DNA of 64,000 bases from an uncultured Alphaproteobacteria bacterium (GTDB taxonomy: Bacteria; Pseudomonadota; Alphaproteobacteria; UBA11222). A program made the position numbers and the translations under genes. The notes below the pieces were generated by a model, which did no database searches, was not told the origin of the DNA, and saw nothing but the letters and a program-made list of their open reading frames with translations. Position 1 is the first letter of the stretch, and the number at the start of each line of letters is the position of its first letter. Below are positions 3,864 through 49,593 of this stretch, one piece after another. Location of the stretch: contig CAMTWQ010000025.1 in NCBI GenBank assembly GCA_947085465.1, forward strand, positions 7,691 to 71,690, written 5' to 3'.

Positions 3864-4244
3864 TTAATCGCGAACGGTTTTCTTTTCCTGGATGCGGGCC
3901 GACTTGCCGGTCAGGCCGCGCAGATAATACAGCTTGGCGCGGCGCACGCGGCCCCGGCGCACGGTGATGATTTCATCGACCAGCGGGCTATACAGCGGGA
4001 ATACGCGCTCCACACCCTCGCCATAGGAAATCTTGCGGATGGTGAAATTCGCGTTCAGCGTCATGCCGCCGGAACGGCCGATGCACACGCCTTCAAACGG
4101 TTGCAGCCGTTCGCGGGTTCCTTCAACAACACGCACCATGACGCGCACCGTATCGCCCGGGCTAAAATCAGGAATTGTTTTGGCCTGAGTTTTCGCGGCG
4201 CGACTGGCAATCTGGTCTTGTTCAAACTGTTGTAGCAGGTTCAT
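3864..4244 (-). CDS. rplS: 50S ribosomal protein L19
   Basis: 126 aa. FSPGDTVRV...[11 protein letters not shown]...[11 protein letters not shown]. Position after trmD. Confidence 0.95.
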
Positions 4245-5532: not shown

Positions 5533-5967
5533 CTAACCTTCGGCTGACTCTGCCGCCTCTGGGGCCGCCTCTGGGGCCACTTCTGGGGCGGGCGCTGCGG
5601 CGGCTGCAGCGACTGCGGCGGCGGCCTTCGCGTCAGCCTCGGCCTTTTGCGCCACACGTTCCAGCGCCTTGGCCTTTGGCTTGCCTTGCTGCGGATTATT
5701 GCCGGCGTCTGGTTTTGCCATCAATCCCGCATCGCCCAGCATGCGCGCAACCCGATCCGTAGGGCATGCGCCAACACCAAGCCAATGAGTGATGCGCTCG
5801 TTCACCAGCTTCATGCGCTGCGCATGGTCCTTGGGCAGCAGCGGATTGAAAAAGCCGAGCTGCTCAATAAAGCGGCCATCACGCGGCGCGCGGGCATCTG
5901 CCACAACGATACGGTAAAATGGGCGTTTTTTTGCGCCGTGCCGGGCAAGGCGAATTTTAAGTGACAT
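5533..5967 (-). CDS. rpsP: 30S ribosomal protein S16 (with Ala/Pro-rich C-terminal tail)
   Basis: [27 protein letters not shown]-terminus. 144 aa. Confidence 0.95.
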
Positions 5968-6005: not shown

Positions 6006-7460
6006 TTAGCGTTTGAAGCCGGGAAAGCCAGGCGGCAGCGGCGGCATGCCGGCATTCGGCCCGCCAAGGCCCGGCAATGCGCCAGGTTTGAAACCCGGCG
6101 GCAATGCGGGCATTCCACCGCCGCCCATTCCGGTTAACCCGCCCAGCATGCTTTTCATGCCTTGCTTGCCGACCTTCTTCATCATATCGGCCATTTGCCG
6201 GTGCATTTTCAGCAGCCGGTTCACGTCCTGCACGCTGGTTCCGGAACCAGCGGCAATGCGTTTTTTTCGCGAGCCGCCAAGGATCTTTGGTTTGCGCCGT
6301 TCTAGTTGGGTCATGGAATGCACGATGGCCTCCTGACGCTTGAGCATTTTGTCATCCAAGCCTGCTGCGGACAATTGACTTTTCACCTTGCCGACCCCCG
6401 GCAACATGCCAAGCACCCCCTGCATCCCACCCATTCTACGCATTTGCGCCAATTGCTCCGCCAGGTCGTCGAGATCAAACTCGCCCTTTTGCATTTTTTT
6501 GGCGAGTTTTTCGGCCTTTTCGGCCTCGAAGCTCTCAGCGGCGCGCTCGACGAGGCCAACCACATCGCCCATGCCAAGAATCCGCCCAGCGATCCGCTCT
6601 GGATGAAAATCCTCCAGTTCTTCAAGCTTTTCGCCAACGCCAATGGCCTTGATCGGGCAACCGGTGATAGCGCGCATGGAAAGCGCCGCGCCGCCGCGCC
6701 CATCGCCATCCACGCGGGTCAGAATAATGCCGGTAAGCGGCGTGCGCGCATGAAAGCTTTGCGCCACATTCACAGCGTCCTGGCCGGTCAAGCTGTCGGC
6801 GACCAGCAAGCATTCATGGGGGTTGACGGCGGCGCGCACCGCCGCCACCTCGGCCATCAGCGCTTCGTCTATATGGGTGCGCCCGGCGGTATCGAGCATC
6901 ACCACGTCAAAGCCGCCCAGCCTGCCAGCCTCCATGGCGCGCTTGGCGATATCCACCGGCATTTGCCCAGCGACGATGGGCAGGGTGGCGACACCCGCCT
7001 GCACGCCCAGCACCTTCAATTGTTCCTGGGCGGCAGGCCGCTGCACATCCAGCGACGCCATCAGCACTTTTTTGCGGTCGCGCTTTTGCAGCCGCATAGC
7101 GAGTTTTGCGGTGGTTGTGGTTTTACCCGAACCTTGCAGGCCAACTATCAGCACCGGCACCGGCGCGGGCGCGTTAAGATCAATGCCCTGGGCCGTATCG
7201 CCCAGCATCGCCACAAGACTGTCGTGCACAATCTTGATCACCATCTGGCCCGGCGTGACCGATTTGACGACTTCGGCCCCAATGGCGCGCTCACGCACCC
7301 TGGCGATGAAATCGCGCGCCACCGGCAGCGCCACGTCGGCTTCCAGCAGCGCGCGGCGCACTTCGCGCATGGCGGCGTCCACATCCGCCTCACTCAGCGA
7401 CGCCTGTTTGCGCAGCGCATCGAAAATGCCGGATAGGCGCTCGGAAAGACTTTCAAACAT
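6006..7460 (-). CDS. ffh: Signal recognition particle protein Ffh
   Basis: 484 aa. GLQGSGKTTT P-loop, DTAGR, Met-rich M domain and Gly/Pro-rich tail. Confidence 0.95.
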   Translation of the reverse strand: MFESLSERLSGIFDALRKQASLSEADVDAAMREVRRALLEADVALPVARDFIARVRERAIGAEVVKSVTPGQMVIKIVHDSLVAMLGDTAQGIDLNAPAPVPVLIVGLQGSGKTTTTAKLAMRLQKRDRKKVLMASLDVQRPAAQEQLKVLGVQAGVATLPIVAGQMPVDIAKRAMEAGRLGGFDVVMLDTAGRTHIDEALMAEVAAVRAAVNPHECLLVADSLTGQDAVNVAQSFHARTPLTGIILTRVDGDGRGGAALSMRAITGCPIKAIGVGEKLEELEDFHPERIAGRILGMGDVVGLVERAAESFEAEKAEKLAKKMQKGEFDLDDLAEQLAQMRRMGGMQGVLGMLPGVGKVKSQLSAAGLDDKMLKRQEAIVHSMTQLERRKPKILGGSRKKRIAAGSGTSVQDVNRLLKMHRQMADMMKKVGKQGMKSMLGGLTGMGGGGMPALPPGFKPGALPGLGGPNAGMPPLPPGFPGFKR

Positions 7461-7620
7461 CGCGTGTTAGCCTGTAATACAATACAAAATGCGCCAGTGG
7501 GCGAAACCTCGCTGACTGGCGGGACGTGTTTTCCGATCATCGCTATGATGGATCGGAGCGGAAGTTAGGCTCGCGCCAGGCTAGAGTCAAGTTTTAGCGG
7601 CTAAATTAGAAGGAAACACC

Positions 7621-10278: not shown

Positions 10279-11034
10279 GTGGATATCGATTATTTACATG
10301 CCCTGCGGATGTGCGAACTTGCGGCGTGGCTAGCCCGCATACACGCGGATAAAAATCATTCCCTGCTGGAGATCGGCGCCGGTACAGGCGCGCAGGCGGC
10401 CCGACTCAGCCGGCATTTCAGCACCGTTGCAGCGGTTGACCTGGCCGCTTCACCCTATGCCAAGGCGCGAGAGTTTCCCGTGCAGGATTATGACGGCCAG
10501 CGGCTGCCGTTTGCGGATGCAAGCTTTGATGTGATCTACACCAGCCATGTGCTGGAGCATGTGGCTGATTTTGCGGCGTTAAGCGATGAAATGCGCCGGG
10601 TGCTGAAGCCAGGTGGGATAGCGGTGCATGTGCTGCCCACCCCCGCGTGGCGGATCGCCAGTTGCTTCACCCATTATCTCGCACTGCCGAAAATCCTGTT
10701 GTCGCGCGCCGCACCGCAAACTGGCGCCACCGCGCCGGGCGCTGGAAAATCGCTGACCGCGAATTTATTGTCGCTATTGTTCGCCGCCCGGCATGGCGAA
10801 AACGGCAACCGTTTTACCGAAGCCTTTTATTACCGCAGCGCCTGGTGGCGGCGGCGGTTTATTGATGCCGGCTGGCAGGTGACGGATGAATTTCCACTTG
10901 GGCTGTTTTATACCGGATATATGATTTTTGGCACGCGCTTGGGGGTCGCGTTGCGTGGCCGGCTTGCAAATATTCTGGGCAGTTCATCCTATTGTTTTGT
11001 CATGCGCAATGCAGGCGCACTTCCGCAAAGGTGA
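10279..11034 (+). CDS. Class I SAM-dependent methyltransferase
   Basis: 251 aa. LLEIGAGTGAQA motif I and FDVIYTSHVLEHV. GTG start. Confidence 0.75.
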   Translation: MDIDYLHALRMCELAAWLARIHADKNHSLLEIGAGTGAQAARLSRHFSTVAAVDLAASPYAKAREFPVQDYDGQRLPFADASFDVIYTSHVLEHVADFAALSDEMRRVLKPGGIAVHVLPTPAWRIASCFTHYLALPKILLSRAAPQTGATAPGAGKSLTANLLSLLFAARHGENGNRFTEAFYYRSAWWRRRFIDAGWQVTDEFPLGLFYTGYMIFGTRLGVALRGRLANILGSSSYCFVMRNAGALPQR

Positions 11035-11371
11035 GTTCCTCCCGCCCGCCGGGCGACACATAGACAAAACGCAGTTCTGAGGTCTGATCAATCATCACGC
11101 CGGGAAGCGGATGATACACCATGCCGCGCCCGCCAAAGCCGGGGCTGGCCGAACCCACGCTAAAGCAATCGCTGAACACCACCTGCATCAGTTTCAAGGC
11201 CACCCCATCCCTGGTGATCTCCTGGGGGATGCGCGTCAGTTCAAGAAAGGCGCGTTTATCGCTGGCGGCGCGGAATCCCTCGGCGAACGCCAGCCCCGCC
11301 AGCCGGTCCGCCTCGTCATCCTGGCGATGGGGATGGGAATGGCCGTGAAGATGATCATGCGGCGCGCTCAC
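11000..11371 (-). CDS. His-rich small protein (123 aa), last gene of the riboswitch operon; candidate metal-handling accessory protein
   Basis: N-terminus MSAPHDHLHGHSHPHRQDDE. Its GTG start overlaps the TGA stop of the upstream hydrolase (GTGA), which implies translational coupling. No P-loop and no CxxC pairs. Family not recognised. Confidence 0.6.
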   Translation of the reverse strand: MSAPHDHLHGHSHPHRQDDEADRLAGLAFAEGFRAASDKRAFLELTRIPQEITRDGVALKLMQVVFSDCFSVGSASPGFGGRGMVYHPLPGVMIDQTSELRFVYVSPGGREELTFAEVRLHCA

Positions 11372-12543
11372 GAGAAACTCACCGGCTTGTCGATCATGTG
11401 CTTGTGCTTGCCCATCATGCCGTTGGCCACCATGGCGCCAAGCACATCGACAATAACACGCACGCCAAACAACGCGGTGATTTCCGATTGGTCATAGGGT
11501 GGCGACACCTCGACCACCTCAAGGCCGCAAAGCCCCTGCGACGCCACCTTGCCAACCAGCGACAGCACCTCACGCGGCAAGAAACCGCCTGGCTCGGGCC
11601 AGCCCGTGCCAGGCACAAAGCCGCAGTCCACACAGTCAACGTCAAAGCTCAGATACACCGCATCCGCGCCCTTCCAGGCAAGCTCCAGCGCAATCTCGGC
11701 GGTCTTGTCGATGCCCAGTTCCTCGACATCGCGCATCGTGAGAATATTGGTGTTGCGCGCGCGGATCTGCGCCACCGCCTCGCGCGGCACCTGCCAGCCG
11801 CCGATGCCAATCTGCACCAGATTGGTGGCCGGCACATTTGGCAGATTCGTCGCATGAAACCAGGGCGTGGTGTGCATGCGCTCGTCCAGATCGCGCTCCT
11901 GAATATCCGCATGGCGGTCAAAATGAATGATGCCGATTTTTTTTGATGTGCATTGGGCAATGCCGCGCACGGTGGCGAAGCCAATGGAATGATCGCCGCC
12001 CAAAATAACCGGCATGGCGCCCGATGAAAACACATGCGCCACCGCGCGGCTGATCTGGTCAAAGGTTTTTTCGATATTGGCCGGAATAGTGAACACATCG
12101 CCGCTATCGCACAGGCTCATCTGTTCACGCAGGTCAACGCCCAGCTCATAATTATACGGCGTATACAGGGCCGAGATTTTACGCATGCCCTGCGGGCCAA
12201 ACCGCGCGCCGGGGCGGTAGGTGGTTCCGCCGTCAAACGGCACGCCGATGACGGCGGCGTCATAGTTGCCGGTGGCCCGTACGTCTTCCGCATAAGGCGC
12301 CTTGAGAAAGGTGTTGATGCCCGCGAAATGCGGCAATTCACCGCGCGCAAATGTTGGGATGCTGCGGTCCTGAATGCTATCCGCGCCGCTCAGGCCGAGT
12401 TTGAGGCTGCGCGCCTGCTCTTCTTTCCAGCGCTTGTCAGGAAGACCGGCTTCGGCAAGCGCGGCCTTCCAGCCGCGCGCCTGCATCTTATCGAAATCCG
12501 GGTGGTGACGCCGTAGGGAGGCTGGAAGCAATTTCATGCGCAT
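11368..12543 (-). CDS. Arginase/ureohydrolase-family hydrolase (agmatinase-like; candidate guanidine hydrolase)
   Basis: 391 aa. Ureohydrolase metal-ligand blocks are intact: ILGGDHSIG, HFDRHADI, LSFDVDCVDCGF, EVVEVSPPYD. It sits in an operon behind a guanidine-I-like riboswitch. Confidence 0.85.
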   Translation of the reverse strand: MRMKLLPASLRRHHPDFDKMQARGWKAALAEAGLPDKRWKEEQARSLKLGLSGADSIQDRSIPTFARGELPHFAGINTFLKAPYAEDVRATGNYDAAVIGVPFDGGTTYRPGARFGPQGMRKISALYTPYNYELGVDLREQMSLCDSGDVFTIPANIEKTFDQISRAVAHVFSSGAMPVILGGDHSIGFATVRGIAQCTSKKIGIIHFDRHADIQERDLDERMHTTPWFHATNLPNVPATNLVQIGIGGWQVPREAVAQIRARNTNILTMRDVEELGIDKTAEIALELAWKGADAVYLSFDVDCVDCGFVPGTGWPEPGGFLPREVLSLVGKVASQGLCGLEVVEVSPPYDQSEITALFGVRVIVDVLGAMVANGMMGKHKHMIDKPVSFS

Positions 12544-12545
12544 TG

Positions 12546-13271
12546 TTATCTCCGGTGTGTCAAGGGAATGTCATAGGTAATCGTTGCGCCTTGTTTGGCG
12601 TTTTGGGCCTTCAGGGATGGGATTTTATCGAACACCATGACCCGGGTTCCAAGCAAGAATCCTTCCTGTAAATCATGGGTAACCATAAAAATCATCATTT
12701 CATTTTCACGCCACAGGCGCAGGATCAATTCGTGCATGTCCTTGCGGGTTCCTGGATCAAGCGCGCCAAATGGCTCATCCAGCAGCAGCACCTTTGGCTG
12801 CATGATAAGCGCCTGGGCAATGGCGAGGCGCTGCTGCATGCCGCCGGACAGCGCCGCCGGGTAAAGATCGCGGGCCTGCGCCAGGCCAACGGATTCAAGA
12901 TACTGCATGGCGGTTTCCCGCGCCTTCCTGCGCGCCGCGCCGAACAAGCGGCCAAGCAGGGGCGAACCGGAAAAGCTTGGGCCGAGCATGACGTTTTCCA
13001 GCACGCTCAAATGCGGAAACACCGAATAGCGCTGATAGACAACGCCGCGGCCGGGTCCGGGCTCGCGCGCGATAGGCGCGCCATCGATTAATATCTCGCC
13101 GCCCGATGGCGTGACTTCGCTCAACAGCATTCGTAAAAATGTGCTCTTGCCGCAGCCGGACGCGCCGACAATAACGCAAAATTCCTGCCCCGCAATTTCT
13201 ATGTTGATGTCGCGCAGCACCGGCTGGTGGTTATATTCCTTGGACAGATTTTTAATGGAAATCGCTGTCAT
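12546..13271 (-). CDS. ABC transporter ATP-binding protein (NitT/TauT family)
   Basis: GASGCGKST Walker A, LSGGMQQRLAIA signature, LLLDEPFGALD Walker B. I moved the start to the MTAISIKNL Met, which forms an ATGA overlap with the permease stop. Confidence 0.9.
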   Translation of the reverse strand: MTAISIKNLSKEYNHQPVLRDINIEIAGQEFCVIVGASGCGKSTFLRMLLSEVTPSGGEILIDGAPIAREPGPGRGVVYQRYSVFPHLSVLENVMLGPSFSGSPLLGRLFGAARRKARETAMQYLESVGLAQARDLYPAALSGGMQQRLAIAQALIMQPKVLLLDEPFGALDPGTRKDMHELILRLWRENEMMIFMVTHDLQEGFLLGTRVMVFDKIPSLKAQNAKQGATITYDIPLTHRR

Positions 13272-14092
13272 GGCTCGTTCCCGGCCGGTTGAAACCAGAC
13301 GAACCTCGTGCGCTGAATTTTCCGCAGCAGATAATCCGATAAAAAAGCCAGCAAGGTAATCCACGCCACATAGGGCAGGATGACATCCATCGCCAGATAC
13401 CGGCGCACCAGAAAAATCCGGTAGCCAAGCCCCTCTGTCGCCGCAATGGCCTCGGCGGCGATCAAGAACAGCCAGGCCGGGCCAAGCGATAATCGCACCG
13501 CATCAATAAGGCGTGGCATTATCTGGGGCGCCACAATCCGCACTATGATTTGCCAGGTGGATGCGCCAAGGGTCTGCGCCTTGATCAATTGTTCGGCCGG
13601 CAGTTCGGCCACGCGCATGGACATGTCGCGCATCATAAAGGGCGCGACACCTATAATGATGAGAATAATTTTCGACAGCTCGCCCAGCCCAAACACAATG
13701 AACAATATCGGCAATAACGCCATCGGCGGCACCATGGAGAGCACGGCGATCAATGGTGAAAATGTCCGCCCCGCATAGGGCAGCAGGCCCGTTGCAATGC
13801 CAAATGCAAGGCCCATCGCCGTGGCCGATAGAAGACCAATGATCAGACGCCGAAGGCTCGCCACTGTATCCGCCCACAACAAAATATCGCCGCTGCGCGG
13901 ATCTGTTTGCAGCGCCATGCGGTCAATGGCGTCTGCAAACGCCATCAGCGGCGGCAGTAATTTATCATTCGGGTTTGCCTCCTGCCGCACATCGGAGGCG
14001 GCCAGATATACGCCCAGCAGCAGCAAAAAGGGCAACGCGCCCAGCAGCCAGCCACCGAACGCTGACGGGCGCCAGTTGATCATGCGGCGCAT
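13268..14092 (-). CDS. ABC transporter permease (NitT/TauT family)
   Basis: 274 aa, polytopic hydrophobic protein, with a binding-protein-dependent transport signature region (EQLIKAQTLGASTWQIIVRIVAPQIMP). Confidence 0.88.
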   Translation of the reverse strand: MRRMINWRPSAFGGWLLGALPFLLLLGVYLAASDVRQEANPNDKLLPPLMAFADAIDRMALQTDPRSGDILLWADTVASLRRLIIGLLSATAMGLAFGIATGLLPYAGRTFSPLIAVLSMVPPMALLPILFIVFGLGELSKIILIIIGVAPFMMRDMSMRVAELPAEQLIKAQTLGASTWQIIVRIVAPQIMPRLIDAVRLSLGPAWLFLIAAEAIAATEGLGYRIFLVRRYLAMDVILPYVAWITLLAFLSDYLLRKIQRTRFVWFQPAGNEP

Positions 14093-14124
14093 GGGGGTTG
14101 CTGCTTATTTACCGTTGGCCTGCT

Positions 14125-15192
14125 TCACAACTTGCCGTCCGCCGCCATCTGCATGTAGGTCGAATCAAAGCGCAGCTTGATGTTGGCGGTGTCGCCAAGC
14201 ACGCCGCCGCCCGGAAACTGAATGCCGATTTTGTCCACGGACGCGCCGCTTTCGCCAAACAGGCCATGCGCCGCCGAAAATTTCCGCACCGCATCCATGG
14301 TGTTTTTCACAGCGGCGCTATTGGTGAACGCCACCCCTTCGCTGGCGAGATACATCATTTTTGTCGTCGCAAGCTGCGCCTCATATCCGGCAACATCGGT
14401 TCCTGACGCCTTGGCAAGCCCGGCGCGCATCGCTGTGTCTTTTTGCATCAGCGCCATCGCCTCATACCATGCGCCGGTCAACGCCTTGCCGAAGGCGGGA
14501 TTATCCTTAAGGGTGGCGGTGTTGACCACCATCAGATCGATGATCTCACCCGGGATTTGCGAGGAGTCAAATACCTTGCTGGCGCCGGGAACGGCCGCCA
14601 CTTCGGATAATTGCGGATTCCAGGTCACGACAGCGCTCACGTCAGCCGAGCCGCTGAACGCCGCGACGATGTCGGCGTCCGATGTATTGACCACCGTCAG
14701 GTCTTTTTCCGAAAGCTTGTTTTTCTCCAGCGCGCGGGCCAGCAGATAATGCGATACGGAAAGCTCGACCAGATTGACCTTCCGCCCCTTTAGATCAGCG
14801 ACGCTTGCGCCATTTTTCACGACAATGCCGTCATTGCCGTTGGAAAAATCGCCAGTGATCAGCGCCGTGCTGTCCACGCCGCCAACCGCTGGAATGGTCA
14901 GCGCGTCCATATTGGTCATGCTGCACCCATCAAAGCCGCCTGCGGTGTATTGATTGATGGATTCGACATAATCGTTGATCTGCACGATCTCGACATCAAT
15001 GCCGTATTTCTTCGCCCATTTTTTCATGATCCCTGAATCTTGCAGATAACCCCACGGCATCCAGCCCACATAGATCGACCAGCAGACTTTGAAGCTGGAT
15101 TTCTGTGCGGCCGATGCGGGCTGCGTACTTGCCGCGACCAGCATTAATACGGCGCCTAGCATCACGGTGATGTTTTTGAAAAATTTGCTCAT
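14125..15192 (-). CDS. ABC transporter periplasmic substrate-binding protein (NMT1/TauA-like)
   Basis: True start taken at MSKFFKNITVMLGAVLMLVAASTQPASA (signal peptide, GGAGGG RBS 8 nt upstream). The 106 upstream codons of the track ORF cover a repeat element and the riboswitch and are not coding. Confidence 0.88.
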   Translation of the reverse strand: MSKFFKNITVMLGAVLMLVAASTQPASAAQKSSFKVCWSIYVGWMPWGYLQDSGIMKKWAKKYGIDVEIVQINDYVESINQYTAGGFDGCSMTNMDALTIPAVGGVDSTALITGDFSNGNDGIVVKNGASVADLKGRKVNLVELSVSHYLLARALEKNKLSEKDLTVVNTSDADIVAAFSGSADVSAVVTWNPQLSEVAAVPGASKVFDSSQIPGEIIDLMVVNTATLKDNPAFGKALTGAWYEAMALMQKDTAMRAGLAKASGTDVAGYEAQLATTKMMYLASEGVAFTNSAAVKNTMDAVRKFSAAHGLFGESGASVDKIGIQFPGGGVLGDTANIKLRFDSTYMQMAADGKL

Positions 15193-15239
15193 TGCACGAC
15201 CCTCCATAAATGACGCGTTTATCAGCACGGGCGCCGGGC

Positions 15240-15352
15240 CTAGACCATTTCCTGATCGGATTGAATCAATCCGATCAGGAAATGGTCTAACGCATTCAAT
15301 CAGAGCCTTTCTTATCCGGTCAGGTTGGTTCAACCTGACCGGGAAAGGCTCT
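15240..15352 (+). repeat. Double-hairpin intergenic repeat, copy 1 (in the 5' leader of the riboswitch operon)
   Basis: Hairpin 1 is gaccatttcctgatcggattgaatcaatccgatcaggaaatggtc, a perfect 21-bp stem. Hairpin 2 is agagcctttcttatccggtcaggttggttcaacctgaccgggaaaggctct. Near-identical copies lie at 23772-23890 and 30000-30118. Confidence 0.9.
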
Positions 15353-15433
15353 GGGGGTCTGGTTTCGCAGCGGGCGAGAGGGCCATTCCCATGGCATCCC
15401 GAGCGACGGGCAGGCGCCCATTGCCGCACGAAA

Positions 15434-15532
15434 CCTCCCGGGTTTTTGTCCCGCCGTGTGTCCGGCCGGTCAACCGGCTGGATCGCATCTCTCGGACCAG
15501 CACGCCTCATGGAAAAGGCGCCGGAACCCTAG
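15434..15532 (-). promoter_or_regulatory. ykkC / guanidine-I riboswitch aptamer
   Basis: The minus strand reads CTAGGGTTCCGGCGCCTTTTCCATGAGGCGTGCTGGTCCGAGAGATGCGATCCAGCCGGTTGACCGGCCGGACACACGGCGGGACAAAAACCCGGGAGG. The blocks CUAGGGUUCCG, GGUCCGAGAG and ACACGGCGGGA-AAAA-CCCGGGAG match the remembered guanidine-I consensus. Confidence 0.8.
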
Positions 15533-15692
15533 ACGCGTATTAAGCTTCTGTTAAGCAATTGTTATGCCATTAATAAGGGCGCGGCGGCAGGGCGGGGTAT
15601 CGCATCACGGCCGCCATATTTGCCTGAATTTAGGGCTAATCCTGACGGTCTGCCTATTTATCCAGCAATTTAATTCTATCCGCCTCAGAAAC

Positions 15693-15722
15693 GATAACGG
15701 CGGCCCGAAAGCCGCCGTTATC
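15693..15722 (-). terminator. Stem-loop downstream of the PEP-CTERM gene (probable terminator)
   Basis: gataacggcggc-ccgaaa-gccgccgttatc is a perfect 12-bp stem starting 21 nt after the stop at 15743. On the minus strand it is followed by GTTTCT. Confidence 0.55.
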
Positions 15723-15742
15723 AATTGGTGCGTGGGGTGGGA

Positions 15743-16987
15743 CTAAGCCCGCCGCCGCCGCGCCATCCCAATGCCGGCCAGACCCGCGCCGAGCAGGCTC
15801 AAGGTCATCGGTTCGGGAACCCCTGTTGGGCCGGGATTAACGGCGTCCGTATCGAAGGTAACCGGGATCATGCTCATATCCACGGTGCCTGCGCTGACAA
15901 AGGTCAGGCCGGTGACAAACGCCACCGGATTAAGCGGATCGAGCAGCGCCGCCTGATCGATGCCCAGTACGCGGAAGCGGTCAACGCCGTCAACGTCGAA
16001 AGCGTACTCAACACCGGCGAAGGCATTGTCCAGAAAGATGTCAAAGCCATCGCCGTCCCACAGAAAGATTTCATAGGCCCCATCATCTCCCGCTATGGTT
16101 GGCAGAAGCACGCTGGCGATATTCGGGCCGCTATTGATGATATAATCATAACCGACGGCGATGATCGGATCGATGAATACCCGTTCATCCGCCCGCGCAT
16201 CGAATAAAAAATCGAATGAAAAATCTTCCGGATCAATGACAGGCAGCAGTGGCGCTTCTGAACTGGATCCGGGACACACAGTGGCACCGCCGAAGCGGCA
16301 TTCCAGGTCCACTTTGATTGTATCTAACGCCCAGGATTCGTCATCCCCGCCTTGCCATCCTGCGCCGGCAGCGTACAGATCAATGGTGAGGGTGCTGGCC
16401 GTGTGCGCGTAAGCCACTGGGCTAAGGTCATAATAAGCGCTATCTGGAAAACTATTATTGAAACCAAGATTGACGCCAAAAGATATCGGAGACACTGTAT
16501 TTGTGTCGCCATTGACATCGAAGTTGTTAAACGTGGCGCCAAAAGGGGCCCCGCCGTCGATACGGGCTACAAAGAAGTCTGGACCATAAGTGGCGTGATT
16601 ACCGTCCCATGAATCAATGGCTGCAAACAGAAAATCCACACTAAAATGCGTATGCGCCGCCAATCCGGTCAAGCGCAGTGTTGATGCTGTTGCCAGTCCT
16701 CCCACGGAAGAGTTACGCAGGAAAAGATTCCCGAAACCGGGGAGGGAGCCATTACTCACCCCACTGTAACCCTGAGTGCCCTGAATTGTGCCACCGCCAG
16801 TCCATTCGGGCGCTGAATTATCCTCAAAGTCCTCATAATACACGACCAAGGCTTGCGCCTCAGTCGCCCCGATACTTAAAAGTGCAATGCAGGCCATCAG
16901 TACGGCAGCGGCGACCATGGCCGCCGGTAAAAGACTATTTCTGAAACGATTCCGGTATCCGCGATGCGGTTTCCTATTGGGTGTCAT
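15743..16987 (-). CDS. Secreted PEP-CTERM sorting-domain protein
   Basis: 414 aa. N-terminal signal/TM segment (AAMVAAAVLMACIALLSIGA). The C-terminus VPEPMTLSLLGAGLAGIGMARRRRA has the PEP motif, a TM helix and an Arg cluster. Confidence 0.8.
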   Translation of the reverse strand: MTPNRKPHRGYRNRFRNSLLPAAMVAAAVLMACIALLSIGATEAQALVVYYEDFEDNSAPEWTGGGTIQGTQGYSGVSNGSLPGFGNLFLRNSSVGGLATASTLRLTGLAAHTHFSVDFLFAAIDSWDGNHATYGPDFFVARIDGGAPFGATFNNFDVNGDTNTVSPISFGVNLGFNNSFPDSAYYDLSPVAYAHTASTLTIDLYAAGAGWQGGDDESWALDTIKVDLECRFGGATVCPGSSSEAPLLPVIDPEDFSFDFLFDARADERVFIDPIIAVGYDYIINSGPNIASVLLPTIAGDDGAYEIFLWDGDGFDIFLDNAFAGVEYAFDVDGVDRFRVLGIDQAALLDPLNPVAFVTGLTFVSAGTVDMSMIPVTFDTDAVNPGPTGVPEPMTLSLLGAGLAGIGMARRRRA

Positions 16988-17170: not shown

Positions 17171-18103
17171 CTATTTATCCAGCAGCTGGATGAGCTCAGA
17201 CGCCCTGACAAAAGGGGATGCATCAGGGGTTGCGGATATCTTACTGCTTACCCGCGCCAGTCCGCGCAGGCCAAACTGTTCCCGCACCATTTCGCCAAGC
17301 CAATGCCGGGCTTGCAGGTTTCGCGTGCGCGGCCCGGCGCCGGTTTGCGCCAACCAGCTTTGATGCCGGTCCAGTTGCAGGAGCAGCGCGTCAATCCCCT
17401 GGCTTTGCGCCGCCGACAGGCTGAGCACCGGGGCCAGCCATTCGCCCTCGCCGATTTCAGAAAGCCCGAGCGCCCCCTCCACATCGGCCTTGGCGCGCCG
17501 TGCCGCCGCCGTCATATCGGCTTTCGTCACCACGGCGATATGCGGGACTTCCATAATGCCCGCCTTCATGAATTGCAGGCTATCACCGGAGCCGGGCTGA
17601 ATACAAAAAACTACCGTGTCCGCCACATTAGCCACGTCGGTTTCCGACTGGCCGATGCCAACGGTCTCGATCAGCACCACGTCATAGATCGCCCGCATCA
17701 ATACCATCGCCGGCAGGGTGAGTGCGGCAAGACCGCCAAGCCGGTCGCGCGCCGCCATGGAGCGGATAAACACGCCCGCATCTTCCGGGTCTGTTGACAG
17801 CCGTGTGCGATCGCCAAGCAACGCGCCGCCGGTTTTGCGCGAGGTAGGATCGACCGCGATCACGGCCACGGTGCGCGCCTGTTTGCGCCACGCTTGCAAG
17901 AGCGCATTGATCAAGGTTGATTTGCCAACGCCGGGCGGTCCGGTCAAGCCAATCACATGGGCGCGCGCGCTGTTCCAGGCGTCATCCAGCAAGCTTGTAA
18001 CGGCCGGATCATCCGTGAACTGTTCAACTGCCGCCAAGGCGCGCGCCATTGCAGACTTGCCGCCGCTACGCAGTTCCGCAAGGGTTGGAATGTCCGGCTT
18101 CAC
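17171..18103 (-). CDS. meaB: MeaB/ArgK-type G3E-family GTPase (methylmalonyl-CoA mutase-associated)
   Basis: 310 aa. GPPGVGKSTLINAL P-loop, ETVGIGQSE, VTKADM. Confidence 0.8.
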   Translation of the reverse strand: MKPDIPTLAELRSGGKSAMARALAAVEQFTDDPAVTSLLDDAWNSARAHVIGLTGPPGVGKSTLINALLQAWRKQARTVAVIAVDPTSRKTGGALLGDRTRLSTDPEDAGVFIRSMAARDRLGGLAALTLPAMVLMRAIYDVVLIETVGIGQSETDVANVADTVVFCIQPGSGDSLQFMKAGIMEVPHIAVVTKADMTAAARRAKADVEGALGLSEIGEGEWLAPVLSLSAAQSQGIDALLLQLDRHQSWLAQTGAGPRTRNLQARHWLGEMVREQFGLRGLARVSSKISATPDASPFVRASELIQLLDK

Positions 18104-23771: not shown

Positions 23772-23890
23772 CTAGACCATTTCCTGATCGGATTGAATCA
23801 ATCCGATCAGGATAAAAATGGTCTAGCACATTCAATCAGAGCCTTTCTTATCCGGTCAGGTTGCTTCAACCTGACCGGGAAAGGCTCTAG
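23772..23890 (+). repeat. Double-hairpin intergenic repeat, copy 2 (between sppA and glyQ)
   Basis: Same two-hairpin unit as 15240-15352, with a 4-nt bulge (ataa) in hairpin 1. Bounded by ctaga...tctag. Confidence 0.9.
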
Positions 23891-26774: not shown

Positions 26775-26851
26775 CGGAGTGTAGCTCAGCCTGGTAGAGC
26801 ACTGCCTTCGGGAGGCAGGGGCCGCAGGTTCAATTCCTGCCACTCCGACCA
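26775..26851 (+). tRNA. tRNA-Pro (anticodon CGG)
   Basis: CGGAGTGTAGCTCAGCCTGGTAGAGCACTGCCTTCGGGAGGCAGGGGCCGCAGGTTCAATTCCTGCCACTCCGACCA. The acceptor CGGAGTG pairs with CACTCCG. Anticodon loop is CUUCGGGAG. It has a GGTTCAATTCC T-arm and an encoded CCA. Confidence 0.9.
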
Positions 26852-27284: not shown

Positions 27285-27767
27285 TTAATCGCACCACGTA
27301 CGGCGGTAACCGGGGCTATTTATCAGATACATATAATTCATGCTTTCTTTGTGGTCGGTTGGGCCGCTTTGTTTTATAAACGCGCGCTGTTCTTCTCCTG
27401 TATATTCCACGTCCGCAGGGTCGCCAATTTTGTAAAGGAAAGGAAAATAGCCTTCTCCGGAAATCCAGCGCCAGCCCGATACATACTGATCGTTCCACAC
27501 AACCCCATCAATATCCGGCTGCACCACAATATCGCCCTGACTGTTTTTAAGCGCTATCTTCTTTTCAAACCATTGCGTCGCGACAAGACGTGTACCATTG
27601 GGCAGTTGCACACAGCGATATTGGTCATAAAAAATACCGTACGGCACGTACAAGACGGCAAGCGTAAAAAAAGCCGTGCAGACGGTCATATACCATCGCA
27701 ACAGACGGCGAAGCGTATTTCGCGCCATGCGCAGCATCAGGCTCATTATACCAGCTTTCATTTTCAT
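27285..27767 (-). CDS. Membrane-anchored small protein (160 aa); candidate immunity partner of the MuF-domain protein
   Basis: N-terminal basic stretch and one TM helix (MTVCTAFFTLAVLYVPYGIFY), then about 110 soluble residues. It lies downstream and co-directional with 27943-28968. Its ATG directly abuts a remnant of a toxin-like 3' end. Confidence 0.55.
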   Translation of the reverse strand: MKMKAGIMSLMLRMARNTLRRLLRWYMTVCTAFFTLAVLYVPYGIFYDQYRCVQLPNGTRLVATQWFEKKIALKNSQGDIVVQPDIDGVVWNDQYVSGWRWISGEGYFPFLYKIGDPADVEYTGEEQRAFIKQSGPTDHKESMNYMYLINSPGYRRTWCD

Positions 27768-27836
27768 TCAGCCTGCCTCCACATGCAATTCTATCCGCCC
27801 CTGGCCAGCGCCATTCGGCAATTACACAAAATGACG

Positions 27837-27983
27837 TTAGAGCAAAAAATTAAGGTACAGCAGGTACAGAGCGGCAAGCGTACAAAAAGCCGTGCAAACG
27901 ATCCTGTACCATCGCCACATCCAGCGAAGCGCAGCCCGCAGCTTACCTGGAAACAGGCTTTTTATACCGGCTCTCATTTTCAT
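27837..27983 (-). pseudogene. Truncated 48-codon paralog of the N-terminus of the 160-aa protein
   Basis: Hand translation gives MKMRAGIKSLFPGKLRAALRWMWRWYRIVCTAFCTLAALYLLYLNFLL*, compared with MKMKAGIMSLMLRMARNTLRRLLRWYMTVCTAFFTLAVLYVPYG. It overlaps the last 41 nt of the MuF-domain gene in another frame. It is below the size cut-off of the ORF track. Confidence 0.5.
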
Positions 27984-28968
27984 TCAGTTTTGCCTCCGCA
28001 TGCAGTTCTGTCTGCCACTGACCGGTGATGGCGTACACCTTGCCGCCGCCATCGGTGATGAACCGCAAAATCTCTGAAACCGCTTCCACGCTGGGCGTGT
28101 CTGGCAAATATTGAGCGATAATTGCCGTAATGCGCCGCAGAATTTCTGGAACCGAATCCGCGTCGGATATCTCGCGCAAATATCGCCTTATATCTTCCGT
28201 GATGCGCCGCAAAATTTCTGCGGCTTTTGCAGGATCGGACGTGCCAAAAATTAATCTATCCCTGATACGTGCCGGGTCGGTATAGGCATCATCAAAGAAA
28301 TATGCGACCGCCCCGTCAATCTTCATCAAGCCATTTTTCTCTGAAACATATCCCTTAAATATACCAGACACAGTGGACCCACCGTGCGGGTATGCGACGG
28401 CTGTAAAATCGTAGCTTATGGAAAATTCGTAGGGAAAATAGCCATTGCCCACCGCTCGCGCCGCATGAATAACTTGTCTGTTGACCTCTTCAAATATTCC
28501 GGCGTCTCCCAGATGATAGGCATAGTGGTTGATGATATCCTGCAAATGGCCAATCCCGGACAACGTCACATCGCCCCCACCCTTAAACGCATGCTCTACG
28601 AAATCCTGTTTTTTCCATTTCGGGCTTGAATCATTCACTTCGCTGGTAAGCGTCTGATTGGCGAATTCGCTCTCGTTACGCACATAGGGTTCTGCTGTGC
28701 ACCGGCAACCATAATCCTCGCCGGGATGCCGCGTCGGCGGTGGGTTATCCCATGCGAACACTTTTCCATTATTTGCCGCATGCGAGGCGCGCACTTTGTT
28801 ATCGCCCCGCGTGCGCCAAATGTAGTGCGTAGTTGGATGTTCCTGCGCTGATGCCTTCTGTTCTTGTGCCGCCGCCTTCAACGACAGTTCAATGGGTACG
28901 CCTTTCCTGAGATACAGATTGAATGCCTTTTTATAGGCTGGGGTATGGATGATATCCGGGAGAGACAT
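27943..28968 (-). CDS. MuF / SPP1 gp7 head-morphogenesis-domain protein with an unrecognised C-terminal region (candidate polymorphic toxin)
   Basis: Residues about 48-95, YIWRTRGDNKVRASHAANNGKVFAWDNPPPTRHPGEDYGCRCTAEP, match the remembered Phage_Mu_F core (W.T..D.rVR.sH..l.G......p...PG....CRC). Residues 100-341 match no family I know and contain three EILR(R/F)IT repeats. Confidence 0.7.
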   Translation of the reverse strand: MSLPDIIHTPAYKKAFNLYLRKGVPIELSLKAAAQEQKASAQEHPTTHYIWRTRGDNKVRASHAANNGKVFAWDNPPPTRHPGEDYGCRCTAEPYVRNESEFANQTLTSEVNDSSPKWKKQDFVEHAFKGGGDVTLSGIGHLQDIINHYAYHLGDAGIFEEVNRQVIHAARAVGNGYFPYEFSISYDFTAVAYPHGGSTVSGIFKGYVSEKNGLMKIDGAVAYFFDDAYTDPARIRDRLIFGTSDPAKAAEILRRITEDIRRYLREISDADSVPEILRRITAIIAQYLPDTPSVEAVSEILRFITDGGGKVYAITGQWQTELHAEAKLNENESRYKKPVSR

Positions 28969-29180
28969 GGCAACTCCTAAAAGGGCGTAAAGCGAATTTG
29001 CTTTATATCAAAACCCAACCCTTTTGTAAAGAACAAAAAGAGAACATGATAAACCATAGGACTATTGGCATGGTCCTGCCCCCCCCATCCACCAGGCGGC
29101 TCTTTTTATCAACCCATTGTATGACATGGATAAAACGATTAGCCGTATATCGGGGCGGGTTCTGAACCCGTCCACCAGGG

Positions 29181-29272
29181 CCGACCACCCTTCGCCCTGC
29201 GGGCTTCGGGTGGCTTACGCCGCTTGGCGTAAGACGCACGGAACCGCACCTTGGGCGAAGGAGTGCTGGAGA
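29181..29272 (+). repeat. 92-bp direct repeat B (partner of 26845-26936)
   Basis: Preceded at 29155-29180 by a T-arm-like stub (gcgggttctgaacccgtccaccagg). Identical to repeat A over the first 77 nt. Confidence 0.92.
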
Positions 29273-29415
29273 GACCGCCTACGGGCTTCGGGTGGCGACG
29301 CCGTAGCGTGCGAAGCCAGAGCGTATCAGAGGCGAATAGTGCAATCCGCAAAATTTTAATAAGTGATAGGATAAACTCCCGCTGATTCGGTTCCGCTGAA
29401 CGAGTGGTGTTTGTG

Positions 29416-29931
29416 ATGCCGTTTCCACACATCGTAGAATCTGTTTATGACCCAGATTTGCTATTCCAGCGCCCGGAACTGATCATGTTCCTTGCCTACT
29501 GGAACGCCAAGCGGGGCGGGCGGCCATTCCCCTGCCGTGACGATTTCGTTCCGCGTGAACTGTTAAGCGTGCTGCCCTCGGTGCACATGTATGACGTTTT
29601 GGATCCGCCCGGCGGCGCGACTGACAAAGGCAAACAATTCCGAGTTCGTCTTATCGGCACCGCATTGAGTAACTTTTTTCCTAAAATGGACATGCGCGGC
29701 ATATACATCGTCGATTGGCCGCGCCCGATGTTTGAGCGGGTGCAACAGCATCTCCTCACTGTGTTGAAGCGCCGGTCGCCTGTGCGCGTCAGTAATCAGT
29801 CAACCAGCATTCCCGGACAAGAGTTTCAGGGATCTGAAGCCTGCTATGCGCCGCTGTCCAGCAATGGCGATGACATCGACATCATTATCGCTGTTTCAAT
29901 ATTATTATTAGAGCAGCCCGCGATTAAGTGA
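29416..29931 (+). CDS. Small PAS-like domain protein (PAS_5 / DUF1457-like)
   Basis: FLAYWNAKRGGRPFPCRDDFVPRELLSVLP...FRVRLIGTAL resembles the alphaproteobacterial PAS_5 family from memory. The start is taken at the ATG four codons into the track ORF. Confidence 0.55.
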   Translation: MPFPHIVESVYDPDLLFQRPELIMFLAYWNAKRGGRPFPCRDDFVPRELLSVLPSVHMYDVLDPPGGATDKGKQFRVRLIGTALSNFFPKMDMRGIYIVDWPRPMFERVQQHLLTVLKRRSPVRVSNQSTSIPGQEFQGSEACYAPLSSNGDDIDIIIAVSILLLEQPAIK

Positions 29932-29999
29932 AGCCACTTCGTGACCCCACTTAATCGCGGAAAGCTGCTCTAACACATTAAAATCTAGAGCAGATTGCT

Positions 30000-30118
30000 C
30001 TAGACCATTTCCTGATCGGATTGAATCAATCCGATCAGGATAAAAATGGTCTAACACATTCACTTAGAGCCTTTCTTGTCCGGTCAGGTTGGTTCAACCT
30101 GACCGGGAAAGGCTCTAG
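30000..30118 (+). repeat. Double-hairpin intergenic repeat, copy 3 (between the PAS-like gene and the DUF4170 gene)
   Basis: Same unit as copies 1 and 2. Preceded by the palindrome ctagagcagattgctctag (29985-30003). Confidence 0.9.
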
Positions 30119-30135
30119 AGATGAGGGAATAGCTT

Positions 30136-30381
30136 CTATTCTGCGGCTTGCTGTTTATCGTGTCCCATATGCGGATCCATCATGCGGTGCAGATGCACGA
30201 TGAAATAACGCATATGCGCATCATCGACCGTGCGCTGCGCCGCCGCCTTCCAAGCCTGTAGCGCCGGTTCATAGCTTGGGAATATCCCGACAATGTCCAG
30301 ATCATCGGTATTCTTGAATTCAACGCTCTGGGGATCAACAAGCCTGCCGCCAAACACCAGATGCAATAATTGTTCGGACAT
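30136..30381 (-). CDS. DUF4170 domain protein
   Basis: MSEQLLHLVFGGRLVDPQSVEFKNTDDLDIVGIFPSYEPALQAWKAAAQRTVDDAHMRYFIVHLHR matches my memory of DUF4170. The start is moved to the internal Met. Confidence 0.6.
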   Translation of the reverse strand: MSEQLLHLVFGGRLVDPQSVEFKNTDDLDIVGIFPSYEPALQAWKAAAQRTVDDAHMRYFIVHLHRMMDPHMGHDKQQAAE

Positions 30382-30516
30382 GACGAACTCCAATTTGCTG
30401 AACCCAAAGCTTAACTGGATTATGTTAAGCATTCATGATCACCATATAGGCCCTGCATTCGCTTGGCGAAAGGCCACGAAATGGGGCAAACTGAGAATTA
30501 TTGTAGGGAGCCCGCC

Positions 30517-31707
30517 ATGGAGCTGTCGTTCAGCCAGGAAGAAATCGCGTTTCGGGATGAAGTGCGGGCATTCCTGAAGCAAAACCTCAGCCTGGAACTG
30601 ATCGCCAGGACGCGGGAAAGCGCCCTGCCACGGCGTGAAGATGTCGCCCCCTGGCACAGAAAACTGTTCGAAAAGGGCTGGGCCGCGCCGAAATGGCCGG
30701 CTGAGCATGGCGGCCCCGGCTGGACGGTAATGCAGCGCTTTATTTTCGATGCGGAAATGACACTCGCCTCGGCGCCGCCTCTATCCGCCTTTGGCATGAC
30801 CATGCTGGCCCCGGTTATCATGCACTATGGCAGCCCCGCGCAGAAACAACGCTTCCTGCCCAAAATCCTGTCAGGCGAGGAATATTGGTGTCAGGGCTAT
30901 TCCGAGCCGGGGGCGGGATCTGATCTCGCCTCGCTGAAAACCCGCGCCGAGGATAAGGGGGATCATTATCTGGTTAACGGGCAAAAAATCTGGACCAGCA
31001 ACGCCCAGGATGCGGATTGGATTTTCTGCCTGGTGCGCACCAACCCGAGCGCCAAAGCGCAGGAGGGCATCAGCTTCCTTCTGATTGACATGAAAACGCC
31101 CGGTGTGCTGCTAAAACCTATCATATCGATCAATGGCAAGCATAGTTTGAACGAGGTGTTTTTCACCGATGTGAAAGTTCCCAAGGAAAATCTTGTCGGC
31201 AAGGAAAACATGGGCTGGACCTACGCCAAATTCCTGCTCGGCAATGAACGCACGGGAATTGCCGGCGTCTCGCGCGCCAATGGGGCGCTTGAGCGTTTGC
31301 GCGAAATGGCTGTTCTTACGCGCGGTGATGCTGGCGGCCAGTTAAGTGATGATGCGGATTTCTGCCGCCGCTTTGCCGAAATTGAAGTGGACCTGATGGC
31401 GCTGTCGCATACGGATTTGCGTGTGGCGTCCGCTGCGGCGCAAGGCGGGCAGATCGGGCCGGAAGCTTCGATCCTGAAAGTAAAGGGAACCGAGATTCAG
31501 CAGGCGATCAGTGATCTGGCGGTTGATGCGCTGGCCCATTACGCCGCGCCATTCGATAGGCCGCATGGGGATAATCTTGGCGATATCGGCCCCTTGCACC
31601 GCAAAGGCGTTGTGCCCGCGATGCTGTTTGGCCGCGCCGCTTCGATCTATGGCGGCACCAACGAAGTTCAGCGCAACATCGTCGCCAAGGCCGTGCTGGG
31701 ATTGTAG
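30517..31707 (+). CDS. Acyl-CoA dehydrogenase family protein
   Basis: WCQGYSEPGAGSDLASL and QKIWTSNAQDADW motifs. AGGGAG RBS before MELSFSQEE. Confidence 0.9.
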   Translation: MELSFSQEEIAFRDEVRAFLKQNLSLELIARTRESALPRREDVAPWHRKLFEKGWAAPKWPAEHGGPGWTVMQRFIFDAEMTLASAPPLSAFGMTMLAPVIMHYGSPAQKQRFLPKILSGEEYWCQGYSEPGAGSDLASLKTRAEDKGDHYLVNGQKIWTSNAQDADWIFCLVRTNPSAKAQEGISFLLIDMKTPGVLLKPIISINGKHSLNEVFFTDVKVPKENLVGKENMGWTYAKFLLGNERTGIAGVSRANGALERLREMAVLTRGDAGGQLSDDADFCRRFAEIEVDLMALSHTDLRVASAAAQGGQIGPEASILKVKGTEIQQAISDLAVDALAHYAAPFDRPHGDNLGDIGPLHRKGVVPAMLFGRAASIYGGTNEVQRNIVAKAVLGL

Positions 31708-49323: not shown

Positions 49324-49593
49324 ATGACACTCCGCACCAATATTGTACTGGCCGCAACGGCGTTGGCTCTGTCTCTGTCAAGCGCAGCCTTCGCGCAATT
49401 CAATGAAGACCTAGGCAAGCGCGTCATGGAGAAATGCTCCATGATGATGAAGGGCGACATGCCGAAAATGGACGATATGATGAAAAAATGCGACATGATG
49501 ATGAAAGGCGAAAAGATGGATGACGCCGGCATGATGAAGATGGATGAGATGATGAAGACAGACGGCATGATGAAAGACGATATGAAGAAGTAA
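49324..49593 (+). CDS. Secreted Met/Lys/Asp-rich small protein (MXKDX pentapeptide-repeat-like)
   Basis: Signal peptide MTLRTNIVLAATALALSLSSAAFA. The 65-aa mature part contains 20 Met by hand count, in MMMKGD / MMKK / MMKTD units, plus 2 Cys. Confidence 0.7.
   Translation: MTLRTNIVLAATALALSLSSAAFAQFNEDLGKRVMEKCSMMMKGDMPKMDDMMKKCDMMMKGEKMDDAGMMKMDEMMKTDGMMKDDMKK

Follow-up and report, generated by a model that had tools for sequence, protein, structure and literature searches.

The minus strand of a 64,000-nt stretch of DNA from an uncultured Alphaproteobacteria bacterium (UBA11222; assembly GCA_947085465.1, contig CAMTWQ010000025.1, positions 7,691-71,690, forward), referred to here as the window, carries an operon in which a guanidine-I riboswitch precedes genes for an ATP-binding cassette (ABC) importer, a guanidine hydrolase of the GdmH type and a small His-rich protein that we call X. 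The best overall explanation, and one that we consider rather probable, is a nitrogen-scavenging operon for free guanidine in which X acts as a nickel factor specific to GdmH. The identity and arrangement of the parts, their conservation and their co-occurrence are established computationally. An earlier interpretation of the same DNA (the sequence-only reading) had proposed guanidine sensing, followed by uptake and direct hydrolysis; this chain is well supported by the sequence, but it is not new as a logic. The same interpretation had seen the His-rich open reading frame (ORF) and undervalued it, X being the really new element.

In the proposed mechanism, transcription would probably start from a sigma-54 promoter, for which an enhancer-binding activator would be needed, most plausibly NtrC under nitrogen limitation. 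The transcript would open with the guanidine-I aptamer, and binding of guanidinium would let the downstream genes be expressed, an ON logic carried over from the riboswitch family. The first three genes would supply a high-affinity ABC importer for guanidine and the fourth a Ni-dependent GdmH that would convert guanidine into urea and ammonium. X, which is predicted to be translationally coupled to gdmH, would likely bind Ni2+ through a disordered His-rich tail, while its core would dock on GdmH, perhaps at a C-terminal ...IDKPVS(F/Y) tail that appears specific to X-linked enzymes. The His tail would then pass nickel to the GdmH active site, and X would in this way do the work that GhaA/GhaB, chaperones of the HypA/HypB type, do in cyanobacteria. 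How the RNA responds to its ligand, what the importer carries, what the enzyme hydrolyses, that X binds nickel and what X does are all predictions made from sequence.

The guanidine hydrolase

That a nickel-containing enzyme with an arginase fold can hydrolyse guanidine has been known only since 2022. A PDB search with the window hydrolase returned the guanidinase of Nitrospira inopinata as the best match (9FEK; E 1e-166), followed by GdmH of Synechocystis (7ESR/7OI1; E 5e-162), with identities of 67% to 9FEK and 64% to 7ESR. The next matches were proclavaminate amidinohydrolase (8e-51) and GpuA/GbuA (1e-46), and no other ureohydrolase matched better than 8e-51. An alignment of the window enzyme with 9FEK and 7ESR (A5) was used both for these identities and for residue mapping. 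The six metal ligands H185, D209, H211, D213, D301 and D303 are invariant across it and correspond to H182, D207, H209, D211, D299 and D301 of N. inopinata, in agreement with the intact set of metal-ligand motifs that had been read from this 391-aa ureohydrolase. Four further residues, T108, H224, W315 and E345, are also invariant and correspond to T105, H222, W313 and E344 of N. inopinata. T105/W313 are the counterparts of Thr97/Trp305 in Synechocystis, the guanidine-specificity pair, and it is by these four residues together with the metal ligands that an 'inferred guanidinase' is defined (PMC11410670).

The sequence-only reading had allowed that the enzyme might group with agmatinases or guanidino-acid hydrolases. 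In the database comparison guanidinases were by far the best matches, and the specificity residues were present. Assignment of the enzyme as a GdmH orthologue, and as neither an agmatinase nor a guanidino-acid hydrolase, is well supported by these comparisons, and we infer that it hydrolyses guanidine. Alternatively, the true substrate could be agmatine or one of the substituted guanidines (methylguanidine, dimethylguanidine or a guanidino acid), with the riboswitch only loosely reporting related compounds. Public databases still name the whole clade 'agmatinase', the NCBIfam agmatinase models give sub-threshold matches to the window enzyme, and Ni-ureohydrolases for dimethylguanidine and metformin exist. 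We nevertheless judge this alternative to be very unlikely, given 64-67% identity to two characterised guanidinases as against E 8e-51 or worse elsewhere, the presence of the Thr/Trp pair and a guanidine-I aptamer pocket that shuts out substituted guanidines (PMC5340920).

Linkage of X to gdmH

Linkage was followed from both genes. A gdmH-anchored census of 80 metagenomic loci was queried with a hidden Markov model of X, with the 76 loci that have at least ~400 nt downstream of gdmH as denominator (4 of the 80 were without usable downstream sequence), and a second, X-anchored set comprised 14 loci with upstream sequence. X was found directly downstream of gdmH in 70 of the 76 loci, and an arginase-family gene directly upstream of X in all 14 X-anchored loci, which came from metagenome-assembled genomes of Alphaproteobacteria, Stellaceae, Acetobacteraceae and Rhodospirillales, from Azospirillum sp. 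ST 5-10 and from Bradyrhizobium oligotrophicum S58. The scan for X loci was run with 14 of the 28 aligned sequences, the full alignment (A1) being too diverse for it. With starts chosen nearest the gdmH stop, the distance from that stop to the X start was between -11 and +30 nt for 61 of the 66 distinct X proteins; in 29 the two overlapped. The coupling described earlier for the window pair is likewise present, as a GTGA overlap.

The presence of X also went together with the C terminus of the enzyme. The C terminus of every X-linked GdmH (70/70, counts that are phylogenetically non-independent) reads ...I(D/N)(K/Q)P(V/I)x(F/Y) or is an extended form of that sequence, a tail that is missing from both crystallised guanidinases. 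Five loci with ample flank lack X; they encode a GdmH subclade ending in ...HRxIIRGWG, again without the I(D/N)(K/Q)P tail, and next to come are either urease genes, UreE among them, or a gene for a putative nickel transporter. In three loci of this subclade (L038, L039 and L088) ureD-ureABC follows directly, and in L038 (7155-7847, 7849-12099) a His-rich membrane protein (DsbD_2, weak NicO match) stands before ureD and a UreE with a His-rich tail after ureC. Such neighbours suggest that the X-less enzymes may draw on the nickel machinery of urease. A single GdmH with an IDKPV tail, in L029 (4330-4769), had no detectable X within 439 nt downstream; this downstream sequence translates as repeat-like filler and may reflect a deletion or mis-assembly.

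A HupE/UreJ nickel permease gene follows X in L010 (Azospirillum), L012 and L023 (PF04955; E 1.5e-54 and 5e-43). HypA- or HypB/UreG-like motifs were found in none of 89 loci within +/-6-7 kb, using a heuristic motif search of limited sensitivity that had no positive control.

Sequence and fold of X

X has 28 close homologues, none of which is annotated. A profile search of 1.84 billion representative proteins (E<=1e-3) returned 187 clusters at 50% identity, and the Bradyrhizobium subfamily alone comprised 1331 proteins that matched at E<=0.001, each standing for a cluster at 90% identity and called 'hypothetical protein' wherever it is named. No Pfam or NCBIfam model matched X. The AlphaFold2 model (predicted local distance difference test score, pLDDT, of 87) has a disordered region of ~20 residues at its start, a long helix and a beta-sheet, with a conserved folded core of ~85 residues at pLDDT above 90. 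Foldseek gave no fold match in the PDB below E 0.5 (template-modelling score, TM, at most 0.25) and a sequence profile search of the PDB gave noise only. X belongs neither to HypA/HypB, which are marked by a HypA fold with an N-terminal MHE motif and two CxxC pairs or by a HypB G3E GTPase domain (X has no Pfam/NCBIfam match, no CxxC and no P-loop), nor to UreE (no UreE_N/UreE_C Pfam match at E<=0.01-0.1 and no PDB sequence or fold match). On this evidence X appears to be a new, unannotated and previously undescribed protein family; the literature on guanidinase/guanidine, nickel and histidine-rich proteins yielded no mention of it, although Funck et al. (2022) may contain one.

At least four His residues were present in a terminal flank of 61 of the 66 X proteins (55 N-terminal, 5 C-terminal and 1 both). 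The tract is mostly N-terminal, as in window X, which begins MSAPHDHLHGHSHPH, and it reaches about 30 or more His in Bradyrhizobium. In other members it is C-terminal, for example ...HDHHHDHDHDHHHHGHHHHHHGH in Azospirillum, and the terminus switches between clades. Motifs of the His region in X of L019-L098 were M(x0-3)PHD(H) or MHRGHDH at the N terminus, an internal GPGHN(H), and HLHSH; GHN was present in 53 of 76 X proteins. With the initiator Met removed, the P-H-D of X would look similar to the M-H-E that forms the N-terminal nickel site in HypA, a likeness that is speculative.

The role of X

The Ni-ureohydrolases GdmH, MefH and DmgH need HypA/HypB-type chaperones (PMC11399263, PMC10927577). 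The most economical reading of X, and the role that we hold to be most likely, is that of a factor for nickel delivery or maturation that serves GdmH specifically. A more far-reaching version is that X founds a new class of GTPase-free small nickel-insertion factor for guanidinases, whose core would read the enzyme tail while the His arm delivers Ni2+, and which would be the main maturation route in Alphaproteobacteria (Bradyrhizobium, Azospirillum and other Rhodospirillales) and a template for how HypAB-less guanidinases, such as that of comammox Nitrospira, get nickel. We hold this version only tentatively, at slightly less than an even chance.

Two other roles compete with nickel delivery. 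X could serve to buffer or store nickel in general, much as Hpn or the HypB tail does, raising local nickel or guarding against its toxicity with no docking or specific insertion. The highly variable length and position of the His tract, a core without an invariant metal ligand and the HupE nickel importer that sometimes adjoins X are all compatible with such a protein. Storage, however, would not require a conserved folded core of 85 residues modelled at high confidence, and neither the near-obligate, translationally coupled linkage to one enzyme nor the co-variation with the GdmH C-terminal tail would be expected of it, which leaves a buffer improbable in our view. The same linkage and the same co-occurrence with the tail would also suit a protein that serves the GdmH hexamer as a non-catalytic subunit, as an assembly factor or as a regulator (a stabiliser or an active-site gate), in which the His tail would be secondary or a nickel sensor. 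Few His residues occur in 5 of 66 members, and a heteromeric Ni-ureohydrolase with an inactive partner is known (MefH alpha/beta). Against this role, His tracts are retained in 61 of 66 members despite moving between termini, a persistence that points to selection on metal binding, and the crystallised guanidinases are active homohexamers without a partner. We consider a subunit or regulator of this kind to be unlikely, to about the same degree as a buffer.

Several points weigh against the favoured explanation, in which X brings nickel to GdmH in a guanidine-controlled operon. X has no detectable homology or fold likeness to known metallochaperones, no His or Cys of its core is invariant when subfamilies are compared, and few His are present in the 5 of 66 members just mentioned. 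The correlation of tail and X is phylogenetically non-independent, and the actual insertase could be a HypAB, UreG or SlyD whose gene lies elsewhere. The guanidinase of N. inopinata is partly Ni-loaded in E. coli without any chaperone (PMC11410670), so that X may not be essential. On the side of regulation, modelling yielded neither a terminator nor an aptamer-dependent sequestration of the Shine-Dalgarno sequence, so that ON regulation is an assumption, and a 114-nt repeat that interrupts the leader might in principle interfere with control. Every step in this organism rests on sequence and models.

Delivery of nickel versus manganese to the guanidinase site is understood only for HypA/HypB-type helpers, and X, whose link to gdmH holds in Alphaproteobacteria from soil and from plants, offers a concrete candidate that is open to direct test. 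If a role in nickel delivery were true, X would represent a new metallochaperone family. Thousands of genes that now carry the label 'agmatinase' or 'hypothetical protein' could then be annotated better, and it would become easier to produce fully active guanidinase in other hosts, be it for ethylene or biofertiliser strains or for the bioremediation of guanidine.

Operon layout and importer

The features of the operon and its leader are listed in Table 1. The binding protein starts at an ATG with GGAGG 8 nt ahead and has a signal peptide. It passed the TIGR03427 equivalog, and its permease and ATPase neighbours matched PF00528 and PF00005, as a binding protein, permease and ATPase of the NitT/TauT type had been read downstream of the riboswitch. 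The top NCBIfam matches of the permease (TauC, SsuC and NtrB) were every one under cut-off. The ATPase starts at the ATG that overlaps the permease stop (translation MTAISIKNL...), and its relatives are 243-260 aa long. The assignment of the transporter to the NitT/TauT-type system that accompanies guanidine genes is well supported, and guanidine is its predicted substrate. In GimA (Sll1080) the guanidinium-binding residues are W59, W62, F205, D135 and D233 (PMC12704784).

Table 1. Features of the guanidine operon and its leader in the window (positions in the 64,000-nt stretch).
Feature	Position	Strand	Evidence
Sigma-54 (-24/-12) motif TGGCAT-N5-TTGCT	15554-15569	-	Sequence; directly upstream of aptamer
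Guanidine-I (ykkC subtype 1) aptamer	15433-15543	-	RF00442, 87.5 bits vs 63, E 2.7e-14
Stem-loop immediately 3' of aptamer, candidate part of expression platform	15400-15430	-	RNAalifold consensus
Dispersed repeat, ~114 nt, two long hairpins	15240-15353		Leader alignment; copies in window
Substrate-binding protein, GimA-like, periplasmic, 355 aa	14125-15192	-	TIGR03427, 543.5 bits vs 333.9; Pfam NMT1
ABC permease, TauC/SsuC-like, 274 aa	13268-14092	-	PF00528, E 1.6e-20
ABC ATPase, 241 aa	12546-13271	-	PF00005, E 2e-31
GdmH-type guanidine hydrolase, 391 aa	11368-12543	-	PF00491, E 5e-77
X, His-rich protein, 123 aa, GTG start	11000-11371	-	No Pfam/NCBIfam match

Gaps of 2 nt or overlaps of 4 nt had been described throughout the operon. 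This holds for permease/ATPase (ATGA overlap), ATPase/hydrolase (2-nt gap) and hydrolase/X, but the gap between binding protein and permease is 32 nt. A convergent methyltransferase gene ends the unit. A long ORF that runs across the aptamer (14125-15510) was rejected as an artefact of the stop-free leader.

The Pfam scan covered 41 window ORFs, 26 of these outside the operon, and ~30 further called ORFs lay outside the scan. Among the 41 scanned ORFs there was no Pfam match to urea/guanidine carboxylase, carboxyguanidine deiminase or allophanate hydrolase, whose absence had been noted before, nor to urease or HypA/HypB. A MeaB-family G3E GTPase (17171-18103) was considered as a partner and rejected; it belongs to a glyQS-ppdK-meaB synteny block found in close relatives of the window only, it is not upstream in Azospirillum or Bradyrhizobium, and in the window a PEP-CTERM gene and a terminator-like hairpin separate it from the operon. 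This intervening 414-aa ORF (15743-16987, minus strand; weak sub-threshold C-terminal PEP-CTERM match, 19.7 bits vs 20.7, E 8.7e-4) has a lower GC content at third codon positions (GC3 0.57). It lies between meaB and the riboswitch, is followed by the hairpin at ~15715-15690, and looks inserted because meaB directly precedes the riboswitch in the closest relatives (L001-L006).

The guanidine-I aptamer

A cmscan search over the whole window gave a single Guanidine-I match, which spans the full model (1-107) and scores above the RF00442 gathering threshold of 63 bits. No other Rfam family overlapped it at E<=10 in a permissive scan of 15150-15750. The three conserved aptamer blocks that had been recognised on the minus strand were all found within 15532-15434. 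Using the numbering of D. dadantii (PMC5340920), from which the mapping is inferred, GGUCCGAGAG holds the equivalents of G37/A38, and CACGGCGGGACAAAAACCCGGGAG holds those of C64, C66, G67, G68, G84, G85, A86 and G87 together with the all-A loop. The subtype-1 pocket has purines at the G67 and A38 equivalents, with G84 and G85, whereas subtype 2 has pyrimidines at 67 and 38 (PMC5340920). As both positions carry purines in the window RNA, it is by sequence a subtype-1 guanidine-I aptamer, as first proposed, rather than a subtype-2 RNA for guanosine tetraphosphate or phosphoribosyl pyrophosphate (ppGpp/PRPP).

Homologous aptamers were present at the equivalent position, before transporter genes, in 8 related loci of the X-anchored set. 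In three other loci (L039, L047 and L080) the aptamer directly precedes gdmH. A further locus, L024, has two guanidine-I aptamers (3925-4014 and 5584-5675), each with its own sigma-54 motif, of which one lies farther upstream and the other directly before gdmH.

A probable sigma-54 promoter

The promoter motif ahead of the aptamer, which the sequence-only reading missed together with the repeat in the leader, places the predicted transcription start at ~15544-15543, the 5' end of the aptamer match. The pattern TGGCAYN5TTGCW has only 2 matches in the 64-kb window, and 25 of the 32 unique riboswitch loci carry the motif between -31 and -40 relative to CTAGGG, versus 0.06 expected. No sigma-70-like site was present ahead of the aptamer here. 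The motif suggests that nitrogen status and guanidine jointly control the operon via an enhancer-binding protein, and promoter and riboswitch together suggest a simple natural gate that requires two inputs, nitrogen starvation AND the substrate. A conserved sigma-54 promoter motif ahead of a guanidine-I aptamer appears to be new, as no paper describing this arrangement was found in the literature on guanidine, sigma-54 and NtrC.

The second match in the window (TGGCATGTGTTTTGCT; 61219-61234, plus strand) lies 46 nt upstream of a plus-strand gene (61280-62560) at the window edge. This gene encodes a 426-aa Peripla_BP_5 protein (PF13433, 560 bits) that resembles UrtA of the urea ABC transporter. 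Urea is the product of GdmH.

The leader and its repeat

The stem-loop that follows the aptamer was the sole helix retained in the RNAalifold consensus of six leaders, with compensatory change in 2 pairs, and no U-tract comes after it. In the canonical platform the 3' strand of P3 can pair alternatively into an intrinsic terminator. A consensus terminator scan found no terminator-type hairpin with a U-tract in the leader, and partition-function estimates across 15 leaders showed no consistent shift in Shine-Dalgarno accessibility between the locked and the free aptamer. Inspection by eye picked out two kinds of candidate tract in the leaders, CU-rich ones that could pair with the Shine-Dalgarno sequence and C-rich ones that resemble rut sites. 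Rho-dependent or kinetic control of the operon is possible.

The window leader is 240 nt long, compared with 77-127 nt in most relatives, because of the inserted 114-nt repeat. This repeat sits between a C-rich tract and the Shine-Dalgarno region and is missing from related leaders. Three near-identical copies of 114-118 nt are present in the window (15240-15353, ~23772-23889 and ~30000-30117), each made of two long perfect hairpins in the manner of a repetitive extragenic palindrome (REP) or miniature inverted-repeat transposable element (MITE), and both hairpins are present in the minimum free energy fold. The insertion, confined to the window among the aligned leaders, raises the possibility that the riboswitch is decoupled or impaired in this genome and that the sigma-54 promoter alone controls the operon. 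The unusual leader length and the folding models, which gave no switching, would agree with this. The aptamer, however, is intact at full score, the repeat lies 3' of the conserved hairpin and its own two hairpins draw its ends together, and the Shine-Dalgarno sequence and start codon are intact; we give a disabled riboswitch very little credence.

Other features of the window

A c-di-GMP-I riboswitch was detected at 48710-48810 on the plus strand (RF01051, 60.7 bits vs 35). The next plus-strand ORF, ~510 nt past it (49324-49593), codes for a protein of 89 aa in which a signal peptide precedes a repetitive body very rich in Met, Lys and Asp (MMKGDMPKMDDMMKK...). A tRNA gene (26775-26848, plus strand) is followed by a region of low coding density and low GC3 (27285-31300) with a phage Mu F-like gene inside it (27943-28968; PF04233), possibly the remains of a prophage or an island that has integrated. 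An Rfam 'ffh sRNA' match (7486-7521, minus strand), barely above threshold at 38.6 vs 35 bits, lies directly upstream of a 484-aa minus-strand ORF (6006-7460).

Comparison with known systems

His-rich nickel metallochaperones, represented by UreE with its C-terminal tail, HypB with its N-terminal His stretch, SlyD, CooJ and Hpn, consist of a disordered, variable His tract on a folded domain and are encoded beside the nickel enzyme that they serve. X shares the disordered, variable His tract on a folded domain and the position of its gene beside the enzyme. It differs from these proteins in having no sequence or fold likeness to them, and no GTPase, CxxC zinc site or GNRH-type motif in its core.

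The operons for metformin and dimethylguanidine hydrolases (hypA, hypB, mefH-alpha/beta and hupE; PMC11399263, PMC10927577) resemble the window operon in pairing a Ni-dependent ureohydrolase with nickel-handling genes, and HupE also occurs in the three loci given above. Unlike GdmH of the window, these hydrolases are HypA/HypB-dependent and heteromeric, with no riboswitch and no X.

In the guanidine carboxylase operons of Pseudomonas, Raoultella, Klebsiella and Dickeya (PMC12186494, PMC5340920), as in the window, the first genes encode a TIGR03427-type importer and stand directly behind a guanidine-I riboswitch. Their enzymes (CgdAB, guanidine carboxylase and allophanate hydrolase) instead use ATP-dependent carboxylation, with no need for nickel, and X is absent.

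In comammox Nitrospira inopinata, for which direct guanidine hydrolysis is established, a riboswitch, an APC permease and the guanidinase 9FEK are found, and the nickel-loading mechanism was called unclear by the authors (PMC11410670). This guanidinase is the closest solved enzyme to that of the window; both systems are under riboswitch control, and neither locus encodes a HypA/HypB-type chaperone. The two differ in uptake, with a proton-coupled permease in N. inopinata and an ABC importer in the window, and the N. inopinata enzyme is without the IDKPVS(F/Y) tail.

In Synechocystis sp. PCC 6803 the guanidine-I riboswitch controls gdmH-ghaA-ghaB (sll1077, sll1078/79), and the adjacent gimABC (sll1080-82) encodes an ABC importer (PMC12704784; review PMC12186494). 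GimA binds guanidine with a dissociation constant (KD) of ~97 nM, and NtcA adds nitrogen control (PMC12704784). The proposal that a dedicated importer in a riboswitch-controlled gdmH operon would be a novelty is not supported, since GimABC has already been described and tested in Synechocystis (PMC12704784, PMC12186494). With the Synechocystis and comammox Nitrospira systems characterised, the logic of sensing, importing and hydrolysing guanidine, including a linked ABC importer, is already established. The cyanobacterial cluster and the window operon share a guanidine-I riboswitch, a Ni-type GdmH, a NitT/TauT-family ABC importer and an additional control by nitrogen status, which is exerted by NtcA in Synechocystis and would use a sigma-54 promoter in the window. 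They differ in layout, as gimABC is a separate transcription unit, whereas the window importer comes first, directly behind the riboswitch, in what is apparently one tightly packed unit with reversed order. The C-terminal tail of GdmH also differs between the two. In place of the HypA/HypB-like GhaA/GhaB, the window has the single, unrelated X, which bears out the suggestion that its accessory gene is unlike the cyanobacterial one. The window operon is a proteobacterial member of this known system with a different gene order.

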